IMG/VR virus record: IMGVR_UViG_2778261121_000001
Coordinates: 1-55,913 of that record
Direction: 5' to 3' (one strand)
DNA from: a virus
Taxonomy: Duplodnaviria; Heunggongvirae; Uroviricota; Caudoviricetes
Length of the DNA: 55,913 nucleotides
Part shown: piece after piece, positions 1,586-54,976 of the stretch
Numbering within the stretch: the first letter of the stretch is position 1
Layout of the letters: each line of letters begins with the position of its first letter
The notes under the pieces: model-generated
The model's database searches: none
The model's input: only the letters and a program-made list of their open reading frames with translations
What the model was told of the DNA's origin: nothing
Translations under genes and position numbers: made by a program

Positions 1586-3619
1586 TTACTTAACTTGGTG
1601 GCCTGGTTTAGCACCAGCATCCGGGCTTAACAGGAAGATATCTTTCCCACCGGGGCCAGCAGCCATCACCATACCTTCGGAGATACCGAAGCGCATTTTA
1701 CGCGGAGCCAGGTTAGCCACCATAATGGTGTGACGACCAATCAGTGCCTGTGGGTCTGGATAAGCAGAACGGATGCCTGAGAAGACATTGCGTTTTTCAC
1801 CACCTAGATCCAGCGTCAGACGCAGCAGTTTGTCAGAACCTTCAACAAACTCTGCGTTTTCAATCAGCGCCACGCGCAGGTCAACTTTGGCGAAGTCGTC
1901 AAAGGTGATAGTTTCCTGAATCGGGTCGTCAGCCAGTGGGCCAGTTACCGGTGCGGCTGTGGCTTTCACTTCTTCTTTGGATGCTTCCACCAGTGCTTCA
2001 ACCTGCTTCATATCGATGCGGTTATACAGTGCCTTGAACGGATTCACTTTATGGCCCAGCAACGGTTGCTGGATGCCATCCCAGGTCAGTTCTGTATTCA
2101 GGAATGCTTCTGCACGTTCAGTCAGTTTCGGCAGTACCGGCTTCAGGTACGTCATCAGCACGCGGAACAGGTTAATGCCCATAGAGCAAATCGCCTGCAG
2201 ATCGGCATCGCGTCCTTCCTGCTTCGCCACCACCCACGGAGCCTGTTCATCGACATAGCGGTTAGCCAGGTCAGCCAATGCCATGATTTCACGGATAGCT
2301 TTACCAAATTCACGGCTTTCCCATGCTTCGCCAATCACTTCAGCGGCATCAGTAAAGGTTTTGTACAGTTGCGGGTCAGCCAGTTCGCTTGCCAGCACGC
2401 CGTCAAAACGCTTGTTGATAAAGCCTGCATTACGGGAGGCCAGGTTAACCACTTTGTTCACGATATCGGCATTCACGCGCTGAACGAAATCCTCCAGGTT
2501 GAGATCGATATCATCAATGCGCGAAGAGAGTTTCGCAGTGTAGTAGTAACGCAGGCTGTCAGCGTCAAAATGATTCAGCCAGGTGCTGGCTTTAATAAAG
2601 GTGCCGCGAGACTTGGACATCTTCGCGCCGTTCACCGTCACATAGCCGTGAACAAACAGGTTGGTCGGCTTGCGGAAGTTGCTGCCTTCCAGCATGGCAG
2701 GCCAGAACAGGCTGTGGAAGTAAACAATATCTTTACCGATGAAGTGGTACAGCTCGGCGGTGGAGTCTTTCTTCCAGTATTCATCGAAGCTGGTGGTATC
2801 GCCGCGCTTGTCGCACAGATTCTTGAAGGAACCCATGTAGCCAATCGGCGCGTCCAGCCAGACGTAGAAATATTTGCCCGGCGCGTTCGGAATTTCAAAA
2901 CCGAAGTAAGGCGCATCGCGGGAGATATCCCACTGTTGCAGGCCGGATTCAAACCACTCCTGCATTTTATTTGCCACCTGCTCCTGCAACGCACCGCTGC
3001 GGGTCCATGCCTGCAACATTTCGCTGAAAGAAGGCAGATCAAAGAAGAAGTGTTCGGAATCACGCATTACCGGGGTAGCGCCAGAAACCACCGATTTCGG
3101 CTCGATCAATTCAGTCGGGCTATATGTTGCGCCGCAGACTTCACAGTTATCGCCGTATTGATCTGGCGCTTTACATTTCGGGCAGGTGCCTTTTACAAAA
3201 CGATCCGGCAGGAACATGCCTTTTTCCGGGTCGTACAACTGAGAGATAGTGCGGTTTTTAATAAAACCGTTCTCTTTCAGGCGAGTATAGATAAGCTCAG
3301 ACAACTGACGGTTCTCTTCGCTGTGCGTCGAGTGATAGTTGTCATAGCTGATGTTAAAGCCTGCGAAATCAGTCTGGTGTTCCTGACTCATTTCGCCAAT
3401 CATCTGCTCCGGTGTGATACCAAGCTGCTGTGCTTTCAGCATGATCGGCGTACCGTGGGCATCGTCGGCACAGATGAAATTAACCTCGTGGCCGCGCATT
3501 CGCTGGTAACGAACCCAGACATCAGCCTGGATGTGCTCCAGCATATGGCCGAGGTGGATTGAGCCGTTAGCGTACGGCAGCGCGCACGTCACCAGAATTT
3601 TCTTCGCGACTTGGGTCAT
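1586..3619 (-). CDS. metG: methionine--tRNA ligase
   Basis: Translation from [29 protein letters not shown] to the C-terminus matches E. coli MetG almost residue for residue; start set at the MTQ methionine rather than the longer track ORF. Confidence 0.95.
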
Positions 3620-3776
3620 AGTAGGCATTACTTCTTTGTAGTGAAAAGGGGCTTGATAGTAACAAAATGGCCTTATGTCTGCCATGTGATAACAGCATTT
3701 CTCATAAATGATTAAATGTCGTAGCTGGAGTACACTACAAGGCGACAATTGCGCAAATTAAAATAAAGGAGACGGG

Positions 3777-4877
3777 ATGAGCGAGTCCAAATCGCCGGAT
3801 GCCCTGAGAGCAATGGTAGCCGGTACGCTGGCTAATTTTCAGCACCCAACCCTGAAACACAACCTGACTACGCTTAAAGCGTTACACCATGTTGCGTTGA
3901 TGGATGACACACTGCATGTCGAACTAATCATGCCTTTCGTGTGGAATAAGCCTTTTGAAGACCTGAAAGAGCAATGTAGTGGTGATCTGCTCCGTATCAC
4001 TGGCGCAAAGGCTATTGACTGGAAGCTGTCGTACAACATTGCCACGCTTAAGCGCGTCAAAAACCAACCAGGCATTAATGGCGTTAAGAATATTATCGCC
4101 GTAAGCTCAGGCAAGGGCGGTGTAGGCAAATCGTCCACAGCAGTAAACTTGGCACTGGCGTTGGCTGCTGAAGGTGCGAAAGTTGGTATTTTGGATGCCG
4201 ATATCTACGGGCCATCAATTCCAACCATGCTGGGCGCGGAAAACCAACGTCCAACCTCACCAGACGGTACTCACATGGCACCTATTATGTCTCATGGCCT
4301 GGCAACCAATTCTATTGGTTATCTGGTCACCGACGACAATGCGATGGTGTGGCGTGGACCGATGGCTAGCAAGGCGCTGATGCAGATGTTGCAGGAAACA
4401 CTGTGGCCTGATCTGGACTATCTCGTTCTCGATATGCCGCCGGGCACTGGTGATATTCAATTGACGCTGGCGCAGAACATTCCTGTAACGGGTGCTGTGG
4501 TGGTAACTACGCCGCAAGATATCGCGCTGATCGATGCGAAGAAAGGCATTGTGATGTTCGAAAAAGTCGAAGTGCCGGTACTGGGTATCGTCGAAAACAT
4601 GAGTGTGCATATTTGCAGTAACTGCGGTCATCACGAGCCAATTTTCGGCACCGGTGGCGCAGAGAAACTGGCCGAGAAATACAACACGCAGTTGTTAGGC
4701 CAAATGCCACTTCATATCTCACTTCGTGAAGATCTGGATAACGGAACACCAACCGTTATTAGTCGTCCAGATAGCGAATTTACGGCTATTTATCGTGACC
4801 TCGCAGATCGCGTTGCTGCCCAAATGTATTGGCAAGGTGAAGTAATACCTGGCGAAATCGCATTCCGCGCAGTGTGA
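3777..4877 (+). CDS. apbC: iron-sulfur cluster carrier ATPase ApbC/Mrp
   Basis: Walker A SSGKGGVGKSS plus CxxC near the C-terminus; strong similarity to E. coli Mrp; divergent from metG as in enterobacterial chromosomes. Confidence 0.93.
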   Translation: MSESKSPDALRAMVAGTLANFQHPTLKHNLTTLKALHHVALMDDTLHVELIMPFVWNKPFEDLKEQCSGDLLRITGAKAIDWKLSYNIATLKRVKNQPGINGVKNIIAVSSGKGGVGKSSTAVNLALALAAEGAKVGILDADIYGPSIPTMLGAENQRPTSPDGTHMAPIMSHGLATNSIGYLVTDDNAMVWRGPMASKALMQMLQETLWPDLDYLVLDMPPGTGDIQLTLAQNIPVTGAVVVTTPQDIALIDAKKGIVMFEKVEVPVLGIVENMSVHICSNCGHHEPIFGTGGAEKLAEKYNTQLLGQMPLHISLREDLDNGTPTVISRPDSEFTAIYRDLADRVAAQMYWQGEVIPGEIAFRAV

Positions 4878-4914
4878 TAAAAAGGCGGTGCATTGCACCG
4901 CCTAATCAGTTCTC

Positions 4915-5304
4915 CTACATCACGGGACAATCATCAAACTCGCCACTTCTTGCGTCGTTGATAATGTGAGTGATCACACCAAACACGGCATTGCTGCCCG
5001 TGCATCCATCGTCATCCTTTGGCAATGCTTCCTTCTTACCGGTTCTTAAATCCTCCAGATGCTGACGTGGGTACTTCCGGTATCTTTTTACGCGATATTC
5101 CCCATCCAGAGCGCATACAAGCAGAGAACCATCAACCGGGGTAAGTGAGGAATCGACCACCAGCAATGCACCCTGTAATATTCCCTCACGATGATGACTA
5201 TCAGCTGCCCTCATGAAGTAGGTCGCTGAAGGATGTCTAATTATCTGCTGATCAAGAGAAATACGGCTCTCAGCATAATCCGCCGCAGGAGAAGGGAAGC
5301 CCAT
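4915..5304 (-). CDS. UmuD'-like protein (pre-processed UmuD homolog, HumD-like)
   Basis: Begins GFPSPAADY, the position of the UmuD autocleavage product, and aligns with the UmuD C-terminal domain; LexA box immediately upstream. Confidence 0.7.
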   Translation of the reverse strand: MGFPSPAADYAESRISLDQQIIRHPSATYFMRAADSHHREGILQGALLVVDSSLTPVDGSLLVCALDGEYRVKRYRKYPRQHLEDLRTGKKEALPKDDDGCTGSNAVFGVITHIINDARSGEFDDCPVM

Positions 5305-5320
5305 AATACTCGCCTCTTAG

Positions 5321-5340
5321 TACTGTATACACATACAGTG
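5321..5340. promoter_or_regulatory. LexA (SOS) box
   Basis: TACTGTATACACATACAGTG fits CTGT-N8-ACAG, 17 nt upstream of the 4915..5304 start codon. Confidence 0.65.
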
Positions 5341-5528
5341 TATATTGAAGCTATATATTTTTGAACTCTATCTCTTAAAAAAGATGTTAATAAGATGCTA
5401 ACTATTGAAAGGCATAAATATATACAATTCAAACAAACGTTATTTTTAACAAATTTTTTCTTCCCATTGACTTTTTCGAACGCCTTGTCAGGTCTAAAGT
5501 GCGCAGAAGTCACTTTTTCCTTCCTGAG

Positions 5529-5537
5529 TTATCCACA
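5529..5537. promoter_or_regulatory. DnaA box (TTATCCACA)
   Basis: Perfect consensus 9-mer in an AT-rich ORF-free region; the same TTATCCACAGGC 12-mer recurs at 35078. Confidence 0.4.
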
Positions 5538-5635
5538 GGCTTATGCACTTGCATGAAAAATCTATTCACACTATCTTAATTCGCAAGACACTGATGTTGC
5601 AGTATTGAGGGTATGTTGGGTTAAAAATAGACATT

Positions 5636-5666
5636 AAAAAGCCCAGTTGACTAGGCTGGGCTTTTT
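5636..5666. terminator. bidirectional intrinsic terminator-like hairpin
   Basis: AAAAA-GCCCAG-loop-CTGGGC-TTTTT. Confidence 0.5.
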
Positions 5667-5966
5667 AAAAGGAAACAGAGTTTGCGGCTCTGTTCCTGAG
5701 CCATAAGTATCTGGCGACTGAATTAAGATTAACCGAATGTACTGGATTCATCAAGAAACGTTGAGTGGTCATACTAGGTAATAATGACCATTTACTAAAC
5801 ATCGTTGTTCTCAAAGAAGATTTAAGTCCAGGTTTTTGGTGACTCTAAAACCTTACCTTAACTCGAAATCGTGCCGTAAGTATCTGGCGACTACAGATAT
5901 TGCAACTGCAAAGGCAAGCCCAAAGGTATTTGCAGCTAGGCGCGATAAAACTAAGTGAGGCCTGTT

Positions 5967-6050
5967 ATGGTTAACTTACTGTTCAAAATCGTGCCGCCGA
6001 TGTTCGCGATTATCAAAGCGATCATTGAGTACGTAAACCAGCGTCCATAA
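5967..6050 (+). CDS. candidate small hydrophobic peptide (27 aa, MVNLLFKIVPPMFAIIKAIIEYVNQRP)
   Basis: ATG with GAGG 8 nt upstream; followed directly by a strong plus-strand terminator; below the ORF-track size cutoff. Confidence 0.25.
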   Translation: MVNLLFKIVPPMFAIIKAIIEYVNQRP

Positions 6051-6064
6051 CGCTAGTTGCTACA

Positions 6065-6096
6065 GGCCCCATCAAGAGCATGGGGCCTCTTTATCG
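6065..6096 (+). terminator. intrinsic terminator
   Basis: GGCCCCAT-loop-ATGGGGCC followed by a T-rich run. Confidence 0.55.
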
Positions 6097-6105
6097 TACT
6101 ATTGC

Positions 6106-6771
6106 TTATTTTTTACGGACTGAGTTGTTCACTGCTCTGGCAATTTTCTCCCGCAATTGCTGCGCTCCGTGGTACTGAACCGCAATATCCCGCAACTCGT
6201 TCACCAGTTCTCTAATCTGGTGATCTTTAAGCTCATTATTTGGGTGATGGGTAACAACTCTGGTTAATTCACCCTTGTCTTTTGCTCTTACGTATGCAGC
6301 TCTTGTGCATTCGACCCATGTATTACCGCCTACATTAACTTCGTAGATTAGGCTGGACTTATCTATCAATTCGGAACAAATACGGGCCGTGGTCTGGCAA
6401 CTAGAGCATTCGCAGTTATCGCGGAAACCGTGGTCTACTGGCTTCGGTTTCACATCATCAACTTTTTCTACCCTATTGGAATTTAAATACTTCGAAGCCT
6501 TGCTATGCCAATCGCTGGTTTTAGGATCTTGTCCATCCATCAAACGCCAGGCTTCAGCGATTAACTCATAACTAGTGACTGTAGCTTCCTGCGCATCACC
6601 AATAAGTCGTGTAATCTCTCTTTCAAGCCGACCGCCTAGCTCTGTTTTAGTGCAATGTTCTGACCAATCGCCAGCCTCAAGCAGCGCGAGAATGCTTAAA
6701 ATATCGTCCAATAGATCAGTGGTATTATCGACTTCCTTCTGAAACTCACCGGCTACTGATTTATGCATCAT
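6106..6771 (-). CDS. hypothetical protein (221 aa)
   Basis: ORF in track; first of a tightly packed run of minus-strand genes with overlapping stop/start codons. Confidence 0.5.
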   Translation of the reverse strand: MMHKSVAGEFQKEVDNTTDLLDDILSILALLEAGDWSEHCTKTELGGRLEREITRLIGDAQEATVTSYELIAEAWRLMDGQDPKTSDWHSKASKYLNSNRVEKVDDVKPKPVDHGFRDNCECSSCQTTARICSELIDKSSLIYEVNVGGNTWVECTRAAYVRAKDKGELTRVVTHHPNNELKDHQIRELVNELRDIAVQYHGAQQLREKIARAVNNSVRKK

Positions 6772-7606: not shown

Positions 7607-8133
7607 CGTGCTGACCCCTCTTTGGTTAAAATGCCTGCTGCAATGCTGTTTATGATGCTGTCAGTGCATGGAGTAGAAAGCTGGGCATCTCCAGCAATTT
7701 TCATGACCTCAACATCCGCATATCGAATACCGAGGTGTATCAGACCGGCTATACCTGACTTAAGTCGAACATTTTCCATAAACAGATCTTTTTCCCGCTG
7801 TTTAGCGGCTTCCAACTCCATCGACAATTTTTCCAACTGCTCTTTATGCTTCTTGTATTCCTGATACGCGTGCCAAGACTGACCTTTGCGCACACTATCA
7901 GTGATATCAGCAACCTGCTCTGGTGTTAGCGTGGTCAGTGGCTGTGCTGGAAAAATCATCACTTGCCCGGCATCCCAATCAAAACCAGCCTGAATTGACT
8001 GAACCTCAACTGATGGTGTTGAACCGATGCGACCAGGCGAATGAACAACGATCGTTACATCCATATCTCGACGATGGCTGTGGTTGTTGGACAAAATACG
8101 ATTCACCAACTCAGAAAATTTGGAAAATTTCAT
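7603..8133 (-). CDS. hypothetical protein (176 aa from the MKFSKF start)
   Basis: ATG at 8131-8133 with GAGGG Shine-Dalgarno and ATGA overlap with the upstream stop; the longer track ORF to 8262 would overlap the upstream gene. Confidence 0.45.
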
Positions 8134-8453
8134 GTTGATCCCTCTTTCTCTCCCCGGATAATTCTGTTGCACACATCCACACACTCGTCGCAGATGAAAA
8201 CGGCGTCCCCAGCAATTAACTTTTTGACGGCGTACTGGGATTTGTTGCAGAAGCTGCAACAAAGTGTTCGCCTGACTGATAAGGATGGAGCGCCAGATGT
8301 CAGCCGCTCCATATCGTTCTTGCGACGCAATATCACACGGCTGAACTCAACCAGTTTCTCCGGGGATATCTCCTCCTCCGTAGCGAGCGTCTCTAGTCGT
8401 TCGAGTATGTTGAAGGCTTTTTCCTGGGTAATAGCAGAATGCGATGTGGTCAT
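8130..8453 (-). CDS. small protein with a ClpX-type C4 zinc-binding domain
   Basis: [34 protein letters not shown] closely resembles the ClpX N-terminal zinc-binding domain; start set at the MTTSHS ATG with AAGGAG Shine-Dalgarno. Confidence 0.55.
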
Positions 8454-8454
8454 C

Positions 8455-9177
8455 TCACTCTCCTTTGATGCGAATGCCAGCGGCGCGGGAATCATTCCAT
8501 CGCTTTACTTCTTCACGAATTACGTCAATGCATTCTTTCGAATCCATTAGGTAATCTTCATCAAAAAGACGTTCCTGTTCGTTTTCTATCGCAACAATGA
8601 TTGCTTCAACTAACTTTTGTGCCTGAGAACCACTTTCTAACTCTGCTATGCGCTTACTTCCATCCGCGATTACTCCCTCGTAATATTCACGCTGCTCGTT
8701 GAGTTTTGATTTTGCGGCTTCCAACGCCGCAACCAATTCGTCTACAGTTCCGGCAGCTTGCAGTGCGTAATCGGTAATAGACATCTCATGATCAATTTCA
8801 GTACCGTTCTCATTAGTTGAGGTGATAGCAAAATAATCAGAGTCGATTTCGTTATCAGCTAAGTGGCGTAGCGTATCGGCAACAAGCTGACCGTTTTCGA
8901 TTAACAGCTTCCCTACCGTTAGCGCAATATCCTCGTTCTCCTGGTCGCGAGATTTGATGTATTGCTGGTTTCTTTCCCGTTCATCCAGTAGCGCCAGCAC
9001 GGTTTCTGGTCCGGCCAGAATTTTGAAGGCGTTGAGCGCATCAATATCAACACCGCTATCTTTAAGTTCCTGCTCGCTTATCAGATCATCATCAACTGGC
9101 AACATTAACAGGCGTTCCATTGCCGGAATTGCACGCTCTGCCGCCTCACGCAGTGCCTGATAGTTAATTTTGGTCAT
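8455..9177 (-). CDS. hypothetical acidic protein (240 aa)
   Basis: ORF in track. Confidence 0.5.
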
Positions 9178-53393: not shown

Positions 53394-53780
53394 ATGTCTG
53401 ACAACAAGATTGAATTTATAGAAAGTCGCTATGCTGCTTTTATCGCAGGGCTGATTGAATCCTCACCTATGAGTCAGGCACAAATAGCCCGACTTATTGG
53501 TTATAAAAATGCCAACAACCTTTCTTTAATTAAAAGTGGCAAAATTCCTTTGCCTATCGATAAGGTTCGTCCGTTGGCGCTGGCGCTGGGTATTGAGCCA
53601 AGTCGTCTTATGATGATGGTGCTGGAAGAACGCCAACCTGAACTCGCAGCATTTTTATACAAAGAAGGCACCGCTCCTCTTAACGAGGACGAAAAACAGG
53701 TTCTTGCTGCATATAACGAGCGATTCGGTAAAGAGAAAGGCGCATCACAAAAGGTTGTTGAGGCCATAAAGTCTCTATGA
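53394..53780 (+). CDS. helix-turn-helix (XRE-family) transcriptional regulator, candidate repressor
   Basis: HTH MSQAQIARLIGYKNANNLSLIKSG; GGTAAGCACTTACC palindrome at 53349-53362 upstream. Confidence 0.65.
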   Translation: MSDNKIEFIESRYAAFIAGLIESSPMSQAQIARLIGYKNANNLSLIKSGKIPLPIDKVRPLALALGIEPSRLMMMVLEERQPELAAFLYKEGTAPLNEDEKQVLAAYNERFGKEKGASQKVVEAIKSL

Positions 53781-54878
53781 AAAATTTACACGAATAAGCT
53801 CTGTTGATAGACGATCTCCCTTGAATTTGTGGTCAATTTCGTCTAAATCCGGTTGCTCTACGATTGATGCGATGTACGTCGAGAAACTTTCTAAGGCGTC
53901 TCGCATCTCGTCCATATAATCGTGTCGGTCGTAGACCCGATCTATCCCCTCAAGACTGTGGTTCATGATTTTGCGTGATACCTCCTGGCTTATGCCTAAT
54001 GCTGGGAAGTAACTACGCGCAGTACGGCGCAAATCTCGGGGTGTAAATGGCTCAAGCTCCATCAGTTCTGGTCGTTCCAGAATACGACGTAATGCCTGGG
54101 CTATTGCCACTTTAGACATAGGAAGGTCTTTCCCGATTTTTTTATTCGAAGGCACGAGCCACTGGCTGCCTTTACCGTATTCGAACAACTCTTCAATACA
54201 TGTGCGCATTAATGTGCTTAAAGGCAGCGAATGCTCACGGGCAGATTTGTTCCTCTTGCCTTGATTCCAAACCCCACGCTTAAGATTGAACTCACTTTTT
54301 TTAGCCCGCAGTACTTCGTCAGGTCGTCTTGCGGATACAAGACACAGCCTGGCCGCCCATTTTGTACCAGCGCACACATTGAAGTAGTCCCATATATTCC
54401 AGAACACCCATACCTCTGCGTCGGTCAGCTTCCGCTCGCGAGGTGTTGGCTTTGCGCCACCGGCAACTTTGTTTAGTGACATATCATTTAACGGTGACAC
54501 ATCGATCATCCCCTGGAAGGCACACCAGCTAAGGAACTGCTTCATCAGAGAGAAAACGCGGCGGCCCATAACAATTTTGCCATCCAGTATTAGAGGGTTG
54601 ACCAGTTGGTTCACCATGAACCTATTAATGTCACTTACTTTTACATCGGCAATGTGCGGCAAAACATGTATCAAAATACAATGAACAGCGATCTCTGGCC
54701 GACGTCTTGTTATCAGCAAAGATAAGCGAGTGAATAACATGAATGCGTCCGAGAATCTCATGTCATTGCTGACCTGGGAGATCATAACGGCCTGCATTTG
54801 AGATGCTCTTTCGAGATACTCAATCGCCTCTTTTGAGGTGTTCTCCGCAGCGCGTGCTCTGTCAAAGCTATTTTTCAT
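53775..54878 (-). CDS. tyrosine site-specific recombinase (integrase/Cre-like)
   Basis: C-terminal catalytic signature R...HSLR...Y (PRDLRRT, NHSLEG, YDRHDY). Confidence 0.8.
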   Translation of the reverse strand: MKNSFDRARAAENTSKEAIEYLERASQMQAVMISQVSNDMRFSDAFMLFTRLSLLITRRRPEIAVHCILIHVLPHIADVKVSDINRFMVNQLVNPLILDGKIVMGRRVFSLMKQFLSWCAFQGMIDVSPLNDMSLNKVAGGAKPTPRERKLTDAEVWVFWNIWDYFNVCAGTKWAARLCLVSARRPDEVLRAKKSEFNLKRGVWNQGKRNKSAREHSLPLSTLMRTCIEELFEYGKGSQWLVPSNKKIGKDLPMSKVAIAQALRRILERPELMELEPFTPRDLRRTARSYFPALGISQEVSRKIMNHSLEGIDRVYDRHDYMDEMRDALESFSTYIASIVEQPDLDEIDHKFKGDRLSTELIRVNFS

Positions 54879-54976
54879 ATGACAATCACCGAGTTACGCC
54901 GATGCACTGTATAAGTAAACAGTATATTAGGCATAGATTCTTATAGGATCAAGAGTCAAAGTAACTCATTTTTAGT

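Follow-up and report, generated by a model that had tools for sequence, protein, structure and literature searches.

The gene at 4915-5304 is humD, an ordinary and already catalogued phage gene, carried here on an SSU5-like phage-plasmid of Escherichia coli and preceded by a predicted LexA operator. Its product begins at the residue at which UmuD is cut to give UmuD', and HumD very probably serves, once DNA damage has lifted LexA repression, as a ready-made UmuD' which together with host UmuC and RecA would form a polymerase V (Pol V)-like enzyme without the delay imposed by cleavage. Knowledge of the humD family, including the truncation and the control by LexA, dates from 1999-2004 and has already entered automatic annotation. 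What the present instance adds is context only: the SSU5-like element, the apparent P1/P7 origin of the cassette, the degenerate active site and the statistics of operator conservation. The window, i.e. the whole stretch of viral DNA analyzed, encompasses 55,913 nucleotides (IMG/VR record IMGVR_UViG_2778261121_000001, positions 1 to 55,913), and the features discussed are collected in Table 1.

Table 1. Features at the humD locus and elsewhere in the window.
Feature	Position	Strand	Remarks
humD coding sequence	4915..5304	-	129 aa plus stop; pre-truncated UmuD' homologue
C-terminal tail GEFDDCPVM	4915-4953 (last 13 codons)	-	12-13-residue extension conserved in the HumD family, lacking in UmuD
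Intrinsic terminator of humD	4883..4903	-	9-bp stem (7 G-C), 3-nt loop, TTTTT; terminator scan
Shine-Dalgarno-like AAGAGG	5313..5318	-	8 nt before the ATG; read from the sequence
LexA (SOS) box, predicted operator	5321..5340		minus strand reads CACTGTATGTGTATACAGTA; CTGT-N8-ACAG core at 5323-5338
Putative sigma-70 promoter, TTCAAA-17 nt-TACACT	5337..5365 (TTCAAA 5365-5360; TACACT 5342-5337)	-	manual, 8/12
P1/P7-derived remnant (upfO / upf91.x-like)	5367..5556	-	DnaA-box TGTGGATAA at 5529-5537
ClpX N-terminal zinc-finger-like ORF	8130..8495	-	121 aa, motif at end; RefSeq orthologue 'ClpX C4-type zinc finger protein'
HTH regulator gene	53394..53780	+	convergent; overlaps 3' end of the recombinase
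Tyrosine recombinase (Pfam Phage_integrase)	53775..54878	-	downstream of the second LexA box

The HumD protein and its N-terminus

The encoded protein has the N-terminus MGFPSPAADYAESRISLDQQ / MGFPSPAADYAESRISLDQQIIRHPSATYFMRAADSHH, i.e. MGFPSPAADY, and the ORF listing places an in-frame stop ahead of the first start codon, which makes an N-terminal extension impossible. Searches with HMMER against PDB sequences align Gly2 of this protein with residue 1 of UmuD' (1umu_A, E 6.7e-23) and with G25 of full-length UmuD (8gmt_B), and BLASTP gives 42% identity to residues 25-136 of E. coli UmuD, corresponding to UmuD' (E 4e-31). UmuD' arises by RecA*-stimulated self-cleavage of UmuD at Cys24/Gly25. 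As Gly2 aligns with Gly25, the glycine of the cleavage site, the start of HumD is the start of UmuD', just as an earlier note on this DNA had claimed when it placed the beginning of the protein at the UmuD autocleavage point. With glycine as the second residue, the initiator methionine should be stripped by methionine aminopeptidase, judging from the known specificity of this enzyme, leaving the N-terminus of UmuD'. The N-terminal arm and the Cys/Ala-Gly cleavage site typical of self-cleaving S24 proteins of the UmuD / MucA type are absent from HumD.

The same note had described the gene as a UmuD'-like humD and proposed alignment with UmuD and P1 HumD. This description is borne out by the NCBIfam equivalog NF051876 ('HumD family translesion DNA polymerase'), which matches the protein from end to end (residues 1-129 of 129) with 219.8 bits against a cut-off of 120, and by the 91.5% identity to HumD of P1 (AAQ14181.1). 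The homologues of P7, D6, RCS47 and SJ46 are 92-93% identical to the window protein, and CYRAN_98 of Escherichia phage Cyrano is 100% identical. The 129-aa protein also carries a Pfam Peptidase_S24 domain and matches PHROG 811 ('UmuD-like protein'), and on near-identical plasmids the orthologue bears the RefSeq name 'HumD family translesion DNA polymerase' (WP_000506720.1). The S24 domain is the only one in the 129 aa: the HTH or winged-helix N-terminal domain of LexA / CI-type repressors is absent, and of the TIGR00498 lexA model only positions 91-166 are matched, with 27 bits against a cut-off of 111.

When 5.8 billion proteins were searched, 561 clusters were retrieved at E <= 1e-5, distributed across the Enterobacteriaceae. 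Among the best 120 of these clusters, 106 start with MGFPSP; the other 14 comprise ten longer products and four start-motif variants or a fragment. Since a Met stands immediately ahead of GFPSP in seven of the ten longer products, these seven are miscalled starts. An AlphaFold2 model of HumD, generated with a 93-sequence family alignment, reached a mean pLDDT of 46 and a pTM of 0.38, a low quality probably due to alignment rows that are all at least 67% identical. The model is uninformative, and the fold is assigned by sequence homology only.

The predicted operator and the transcription unit

The LexA box upstream of humD has the core CTGTATACACATACAG, and its 20-mer shows three mismatches to the consensus TACTGTATATATATACAGTA, the first base being C, not T. 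None of 100 shuffles gave a LexA match as good. The earlier note had reported a near-consensus box 17 nt upstream of the gene; the box is indeed present, while its distance to the ATG (5304) has to be corrected to 16 nt. Two copies of the bare CTGT-N8-ACAG core are present in the window, where about one is expected by chance, and the chance of finding a core within 50 nt of the humD start codon is about 1e-3 by our own arithmetic. As a core is expected around once per window, the position and the conservation of the box weigh more than the match itself. Both halves of the core, CTGT and ACAG, are retained in all 80 related viral loci in IMG/VR, which represent 33 distinct upstream sequences, and their distance to the ATG is constant, whereas the flanks and the 8 nt between the two halves vary. 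A LexA box is also found upstream of the homologues in P1, N15, phiKO2, HK639 and HK140, as well as in Enterobacter phage MII_001, Hafnia phage yong1 and Aeromonas phage pAEv1818; across these eight phages the protein identity goes down to 44%, and ahead of the coding sequence blastn yields no alignment. The GenBank records of P1 and phiKO2 annotate these positions as LexA binding sites, and humD has been described as LexA-regulated (PMC9603915). These comparisons identify the box as the predicted LexA operator of humD, to which LexA would be expected to bind.

The putative -10 hexamer reaches into the left half of the LexA box. In close relatives it reads TATACT, giving 9/12 matches, and an automated sigma-70 scan with a threshold of 9/12 called no promoter at humD. 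The gene may be transcribed from this promoter, the consensus of which is weak. At the position equivalent to the Shine-Dalgarno-like motif, GAGG or GGAGG is found in the P1, HK639, Hafnia yong1 and Enterobacter phage loci. No divergent gene sharing the humD LexA box (compare lxr in P1 and dinI in phiKO2) was found, and the plus-strand ORFs upstream of humD are short, of low complexity and without RefSeq annotation.

At the other end, the terminator starts 11 nt past the humD stop, and its hairpin has a folding energy of -20.8 kcal/mol (z -3.74), a value reached by none of 200 shuffles. It lies inside the 37-nt gap that separates humD from apbC (3777..4877, plus strand). The two genes are convergent, which gives a more precise form to the earlier statement that humD abuts apbC. 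With a terminator after its stop and a convergent neighbor, humD is monocistronic.

The SSU5-like carrier and traces of P1/P7 DNA

The 1.5-kb humD region is 99.5-99.8% identical to E. coli plasmids of ~110 kb and to the phages Cyrano and CMS-2020a, and the blocks of the window that align with plasmid pR9-658-1 (110,949 bp) are collinear and 97-99% identical. Besides a complete siphovirus structural module, this plasmid encodes RepB, RecA, DnaE, NrdAB, ThyA, DfrA51, a ligase and tRNAs. Over the dnaE region, the identity to Salmonella phage SSU5 is 80.6%. On the strength of the plasmid matches, the siphovirus module and the SSU5-like dnaE region, the element is an SSU5-like phage-plasmid of ~110 kb. 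The phage-plasmid architecture attributed to humD in the earlier note thereby holds for the replicon, which is to be refined to SSU5-like, not P1-like. A DnaB-like helicase, 3'-5' and 5'-3' exonucleases and RNase HI are encoded by the element as well.

More than 100 near-identical plasmid records from E. coli contain the humD locus. Of 12 records of SSU5-like phages, only the four from E. coli have it, and SSU5 and the Klebsiella relatives are without it. The Klebsiella and Enterobacter relatives of the locus were considered as SSU5-like elements with the same neighborhood and rejected as such, being located in N15/phiKO2-like elements and at prophage ends. Relatives differ from the window by insertions 1-2 kb upstream of humD: pR9-658-1 carries ISEcp1-blaCTX-M-15 and pTW10722_119 an IS66-family element. 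The annotation of pR9-658-1 lists no Y-family polymerase, a result that for the window covers the blocks aligned with this plasmid, and in N15-like elements and prophages the homologues are likewise without a flanking umuC. With no Y-family polymerase annotated on the element, HumD would have to rely on the UmuC of the host, as P1 HumD does. Two phage-plasmid papers are silent on humD, LexA and metG.

The neighbor apbC is part of a metG-apbC block (1586-4877) in which the two genes are divergent, as on the chromosome. The block has ~90% nucleotide identity to the chromosomal locus, which is found in all 5,426 E. coli genomes; this homology ends at the apbC stop, and the block occurs on 223 plasmid records. 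Judged by these matches, metG-apbC is a captured chromosomal segment, that is, phage-plasmid cargo and not chromosome. The phage-plasmid would thereby supply a second, diverged methionyl-tRNA synthetase and Fe-S carrier.

The humD cassette itself appears to derive from a P1/P7-like phage-plasmid, this being the simplest reading. The remnant immediately upstream (5367-5556) shares 84.7% identity with DNA of P7 and of P1 variants and 76% with P1 upfO, and its upfO-like reading frame is broken after 14 codons. In P7 and the P1 variants, the matching DNA sits about 1.5-2.6 kb upstream of humD, and in P1 hot and lxr separate the upfO-like region from humD. In tblastn searches of the window, P1 Hot, Lxr, Phd, Doc, PdcA and PdcB had no match, and except for the box the upstream DNA is not alignable with the P1 type strains. 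Such traces of the P1 pmgU...upfO...hot-lxr-humD neighborhood point to an exchange between P1-like and SSU5-like phage-plasmids.

Further upstream, the region 5557-6105 has no annotated gene and matches Cyrano-like phages only. The C-terminus of the adjoining ORF at 6106..6771 (6118-6231) resembles residues 15-52 of P1 PmgU with 50% identity. An Rfam scan of 4700-6300 gave sub-threshold matches only; one of these, to AgrB (RF02891), is full-length (5633-5714, minus strand; 27.6 bits against a gathering threshold of 40, E 0.011-0.044) and corresponds to the hairpin GGAACAGAGCCGCAAACTCTGTTTCC and a terminator at 5657-5640, ~300 nt upstream of the humD LexA box. E. coli AgrB is an antisense regulator of the SOS-induced dinQ toxin, and the match could represent either chance or a small RNA.

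Proposed role of HumD and comparison with known systems

The locus can be read as a self-contained, single-gene unit, which would consist of a weak sigma-70 promoter with its -10 over the LexA operator, a ribosome-binding site, humD and an intrinsic terminator. In an undamaged cell, host LexA on the box would repress transcription. Upon DNA damage, RecA*-stimulated self-cleavage of LexA would derepress humD, and a product starting with Met-Gly-Phe-Pro would, after removal of the Met, have the exact N-terminus of UmuD' (Gly25). HumD would in this way bypass RecA*-mediated self-cleavage, the slow late gate of Pol V, and would dimerize, bind host UmuC and RecA filaments and act as the UmuD'2 part of a Pol V-like polymerase. 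Lesion bypass and mutagenesis would then set in earlier or be stronger, from which both the damaged phage-plasmid and its host would benefit. The primary paper, McLenigan et al. 1999, is said to report that P1 HumD complements UmuD' in mutagenesis and binds UmuC and RecA filaments. By analogy with P1 HumD, the protein encoded in the window would modulate host translesion synthesis during the SOS response, and its partnership with UmuC and the ensuing phenotype are expected, rather than observed, for the window allele. As P1 HumD is poorly expressed and needs a high-copy plasmid for good complementation, its effect under physiological conditions may be small.

With a LexA-controlled, pre-activated UmuD', it would be possible for a temperate phage or phage-plasmid to escape the RecA*-cleavage checkpoint that delays Pol V, and due to this bypass the carriers could mutate more, or earlier, after exposure to DNA-damaging antibiotics. 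Clinical E. coli often harbor SSU5-like phage-plasmids of this kind, some of them with CTX-M-15, and if humD did raise stress-induced mutagenesis, this would be of some epidemiological interest.

It is also conceivable, though unlikely, that HumD is chiefly a modulator or brake, forming heterodimers with UmuD or UmuD' or binding Pol III subunits or the DnaE of the element, and that it alters the DNA-damage checkpoint or the replication of the element largely independently of UmuC-dependent bypass. The C-terminal tail speaks for such a role, as a motif invariant in the family and lacking in UmuD implies an extra interaction surface: EFDDCPV is invariant in a 20-member alignment, each of its positions is invariant or at least 90% conserved in the 93-member alignment, and a conserved Cys lies within the extension. 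UmuD and UmuD' both bind Pol III subunits, P1 humD adjoins hot, a homologue of Pol III theta, and the element has its own DnaE, RecA, 3'-5' exonuclease and ClpX zinc-finger-like protein. However, complementation of UmuD' and binding of UmuC and RecA filaments are the properties reported for P1 HumD, a protein 91.5% identical to that of the window, and nothing here points to a specific alternative partner. This favors a role of HumD as UmuD' in a Pol V-like enzyme.

A second strong LexA box, CACTGTATAAGTAAACAGTA at 54905-54924, has four mismatches to the consensus and lies 26 nt before the ATG of the tyrosine recombinase. Apart from the humD box, no other on the whole ~110-kb element has four mismatches or fewer. 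In the Klebsiella phage-plasmid pJN2-26 the box is kept as TACTGTATATAAACACAGTA, 27 nt before the ATG of a recombinase that is 82.6% identical, the flanks having diverged, and SSU5 is without the entire segment that comprises the recombinase and the second box. Judging from the conserved box, the recombinase may be under SOS control, with a possible link to induction or multimer resolution. It is quite improbable that humD and the recombinase, as the only two LexA-wired accessory modules of the E. coli SSU5-like branch, form an SOS-sensing circuit in which HumD, with its EFDDCPV tail, works with the RecA, the DnaE or the ClpX-type zinc finger of the element and not only with UmuC; if true, HumD would be a phage-autonomous damage-tolerance or induction module rather than a simple Pol V booster. 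The zinc-binding domain of ClpX recognizes UmuD and delivers UmuD' to ClpXP, and, speculatively, a stand-alone zinc finger of this type might affect the stability of HumD or UmuD'.

The active site bears on whether HumD could be an S24 serine protease acting in trans, cutting UmuD, LexA or a phage repressor and thereby speeding up SOS or prophage induction. UmuD is able to self-cleave intermolecularly, and Ser36 and Lys73 of HumD align with the UmuD dyad Ser60 / Lys97, so that the Ser/Lys dyad, which the earlier note had marked for checking, is nominally present. The motif around it is degenerate, however, as GDSM has become A-DSH (Gly deleted, Met replaced by His). In an alignment of 122 sequences (120 family clusters, the query and UmuD'), Lys is found in 119, but the Ser column holds Ser in 77, Thr in 43 and Ala in two (Thr or Ala in 37%), and the position of the preceding Asp is freely variable. 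A nucleophile is not expected to drift in this manner, and the role of UmuD' in mutagenesis is independent of the dyad. The drift is as expected of a protein freed from self-cleavage and argues against a protease role; an active protease is therefore very improbable and was rejected on the drift of the dyad and the selection data.

Least credible of all, and rejected on the selection data, is that humD is a decaying, non-functional passenger of P1/P7 DNA with the LexA box as a relic: although the nearby P1-like DNA is degraded (broken upfO-like frame, hot and lxr absent) and the promoter consensus is weak, dN/dS against P1 humD is 0.05 (dS 0.80, dN 0.042), each of the 49 distinct humD alleles is an intact ORF of 129 codons, the cores of the box do not vary over the 33 upstream variants and the locus is present on the >100 plasmid records, and humD is under strong purifying selection.

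Compared to P1 HumD, the window protein has the same length (129 aa), the same MGFPSPAADY start and the same tail, GEFDDCPV(M/I). In both cases a LexA box precedes the ATG by 16-19 nt, umuC is not adjacent and the gene is carried by a phage-plasmid. Upstream of the P1 gene are a divergent lxr and the nearby hot, and downstream phd-doc, whereas the window has none of these and a terminator facing apbC. The P1 replicon is P1-like and that of the window SSU5-like. E. coli UmuD/UmuD' (1UMU, 1I4V, 8GMT) shares with HumD the S24 domain, nominally the Ser60/Lys97 pair, and LexA regulation (predicted here). HumD differs in having neither the 24-residue arm nor the Cys-Gly site, and is thus without the RecA*-dependent activation step. 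It also differs in the absence of a umuC operon, the degenerate GDSM and the C-terminal extension of 12-13 residues.

A second group consists of N15 gp26, phiKO2 gp23 and the UmuD-like 'moron' genes at the ends of lambdoid/P22-like prophages (HK140, HK639, BTP1), which are 60-71% identical. Like humD, these genes have the truncated architecture, a LexA box upstream and no umuC partner. They usually follow tail-fiber genes, by sopAB or integrase/attP, and are often paired with a divergent dinI, which the window humD is without. The plasmid and integrative conjugative element (ICE) umuDC-like operons resemble humD as SOS-controlled translesion synthesis functions borne by mobile elements. Of these, mucAB, impCAB, rumAB and samAB encode full-length cleavable UmuD homologues and their own Y-family polymerase (PMC7092418), whereas the humD locus provides the pre-cleaved accessory subunit alone.
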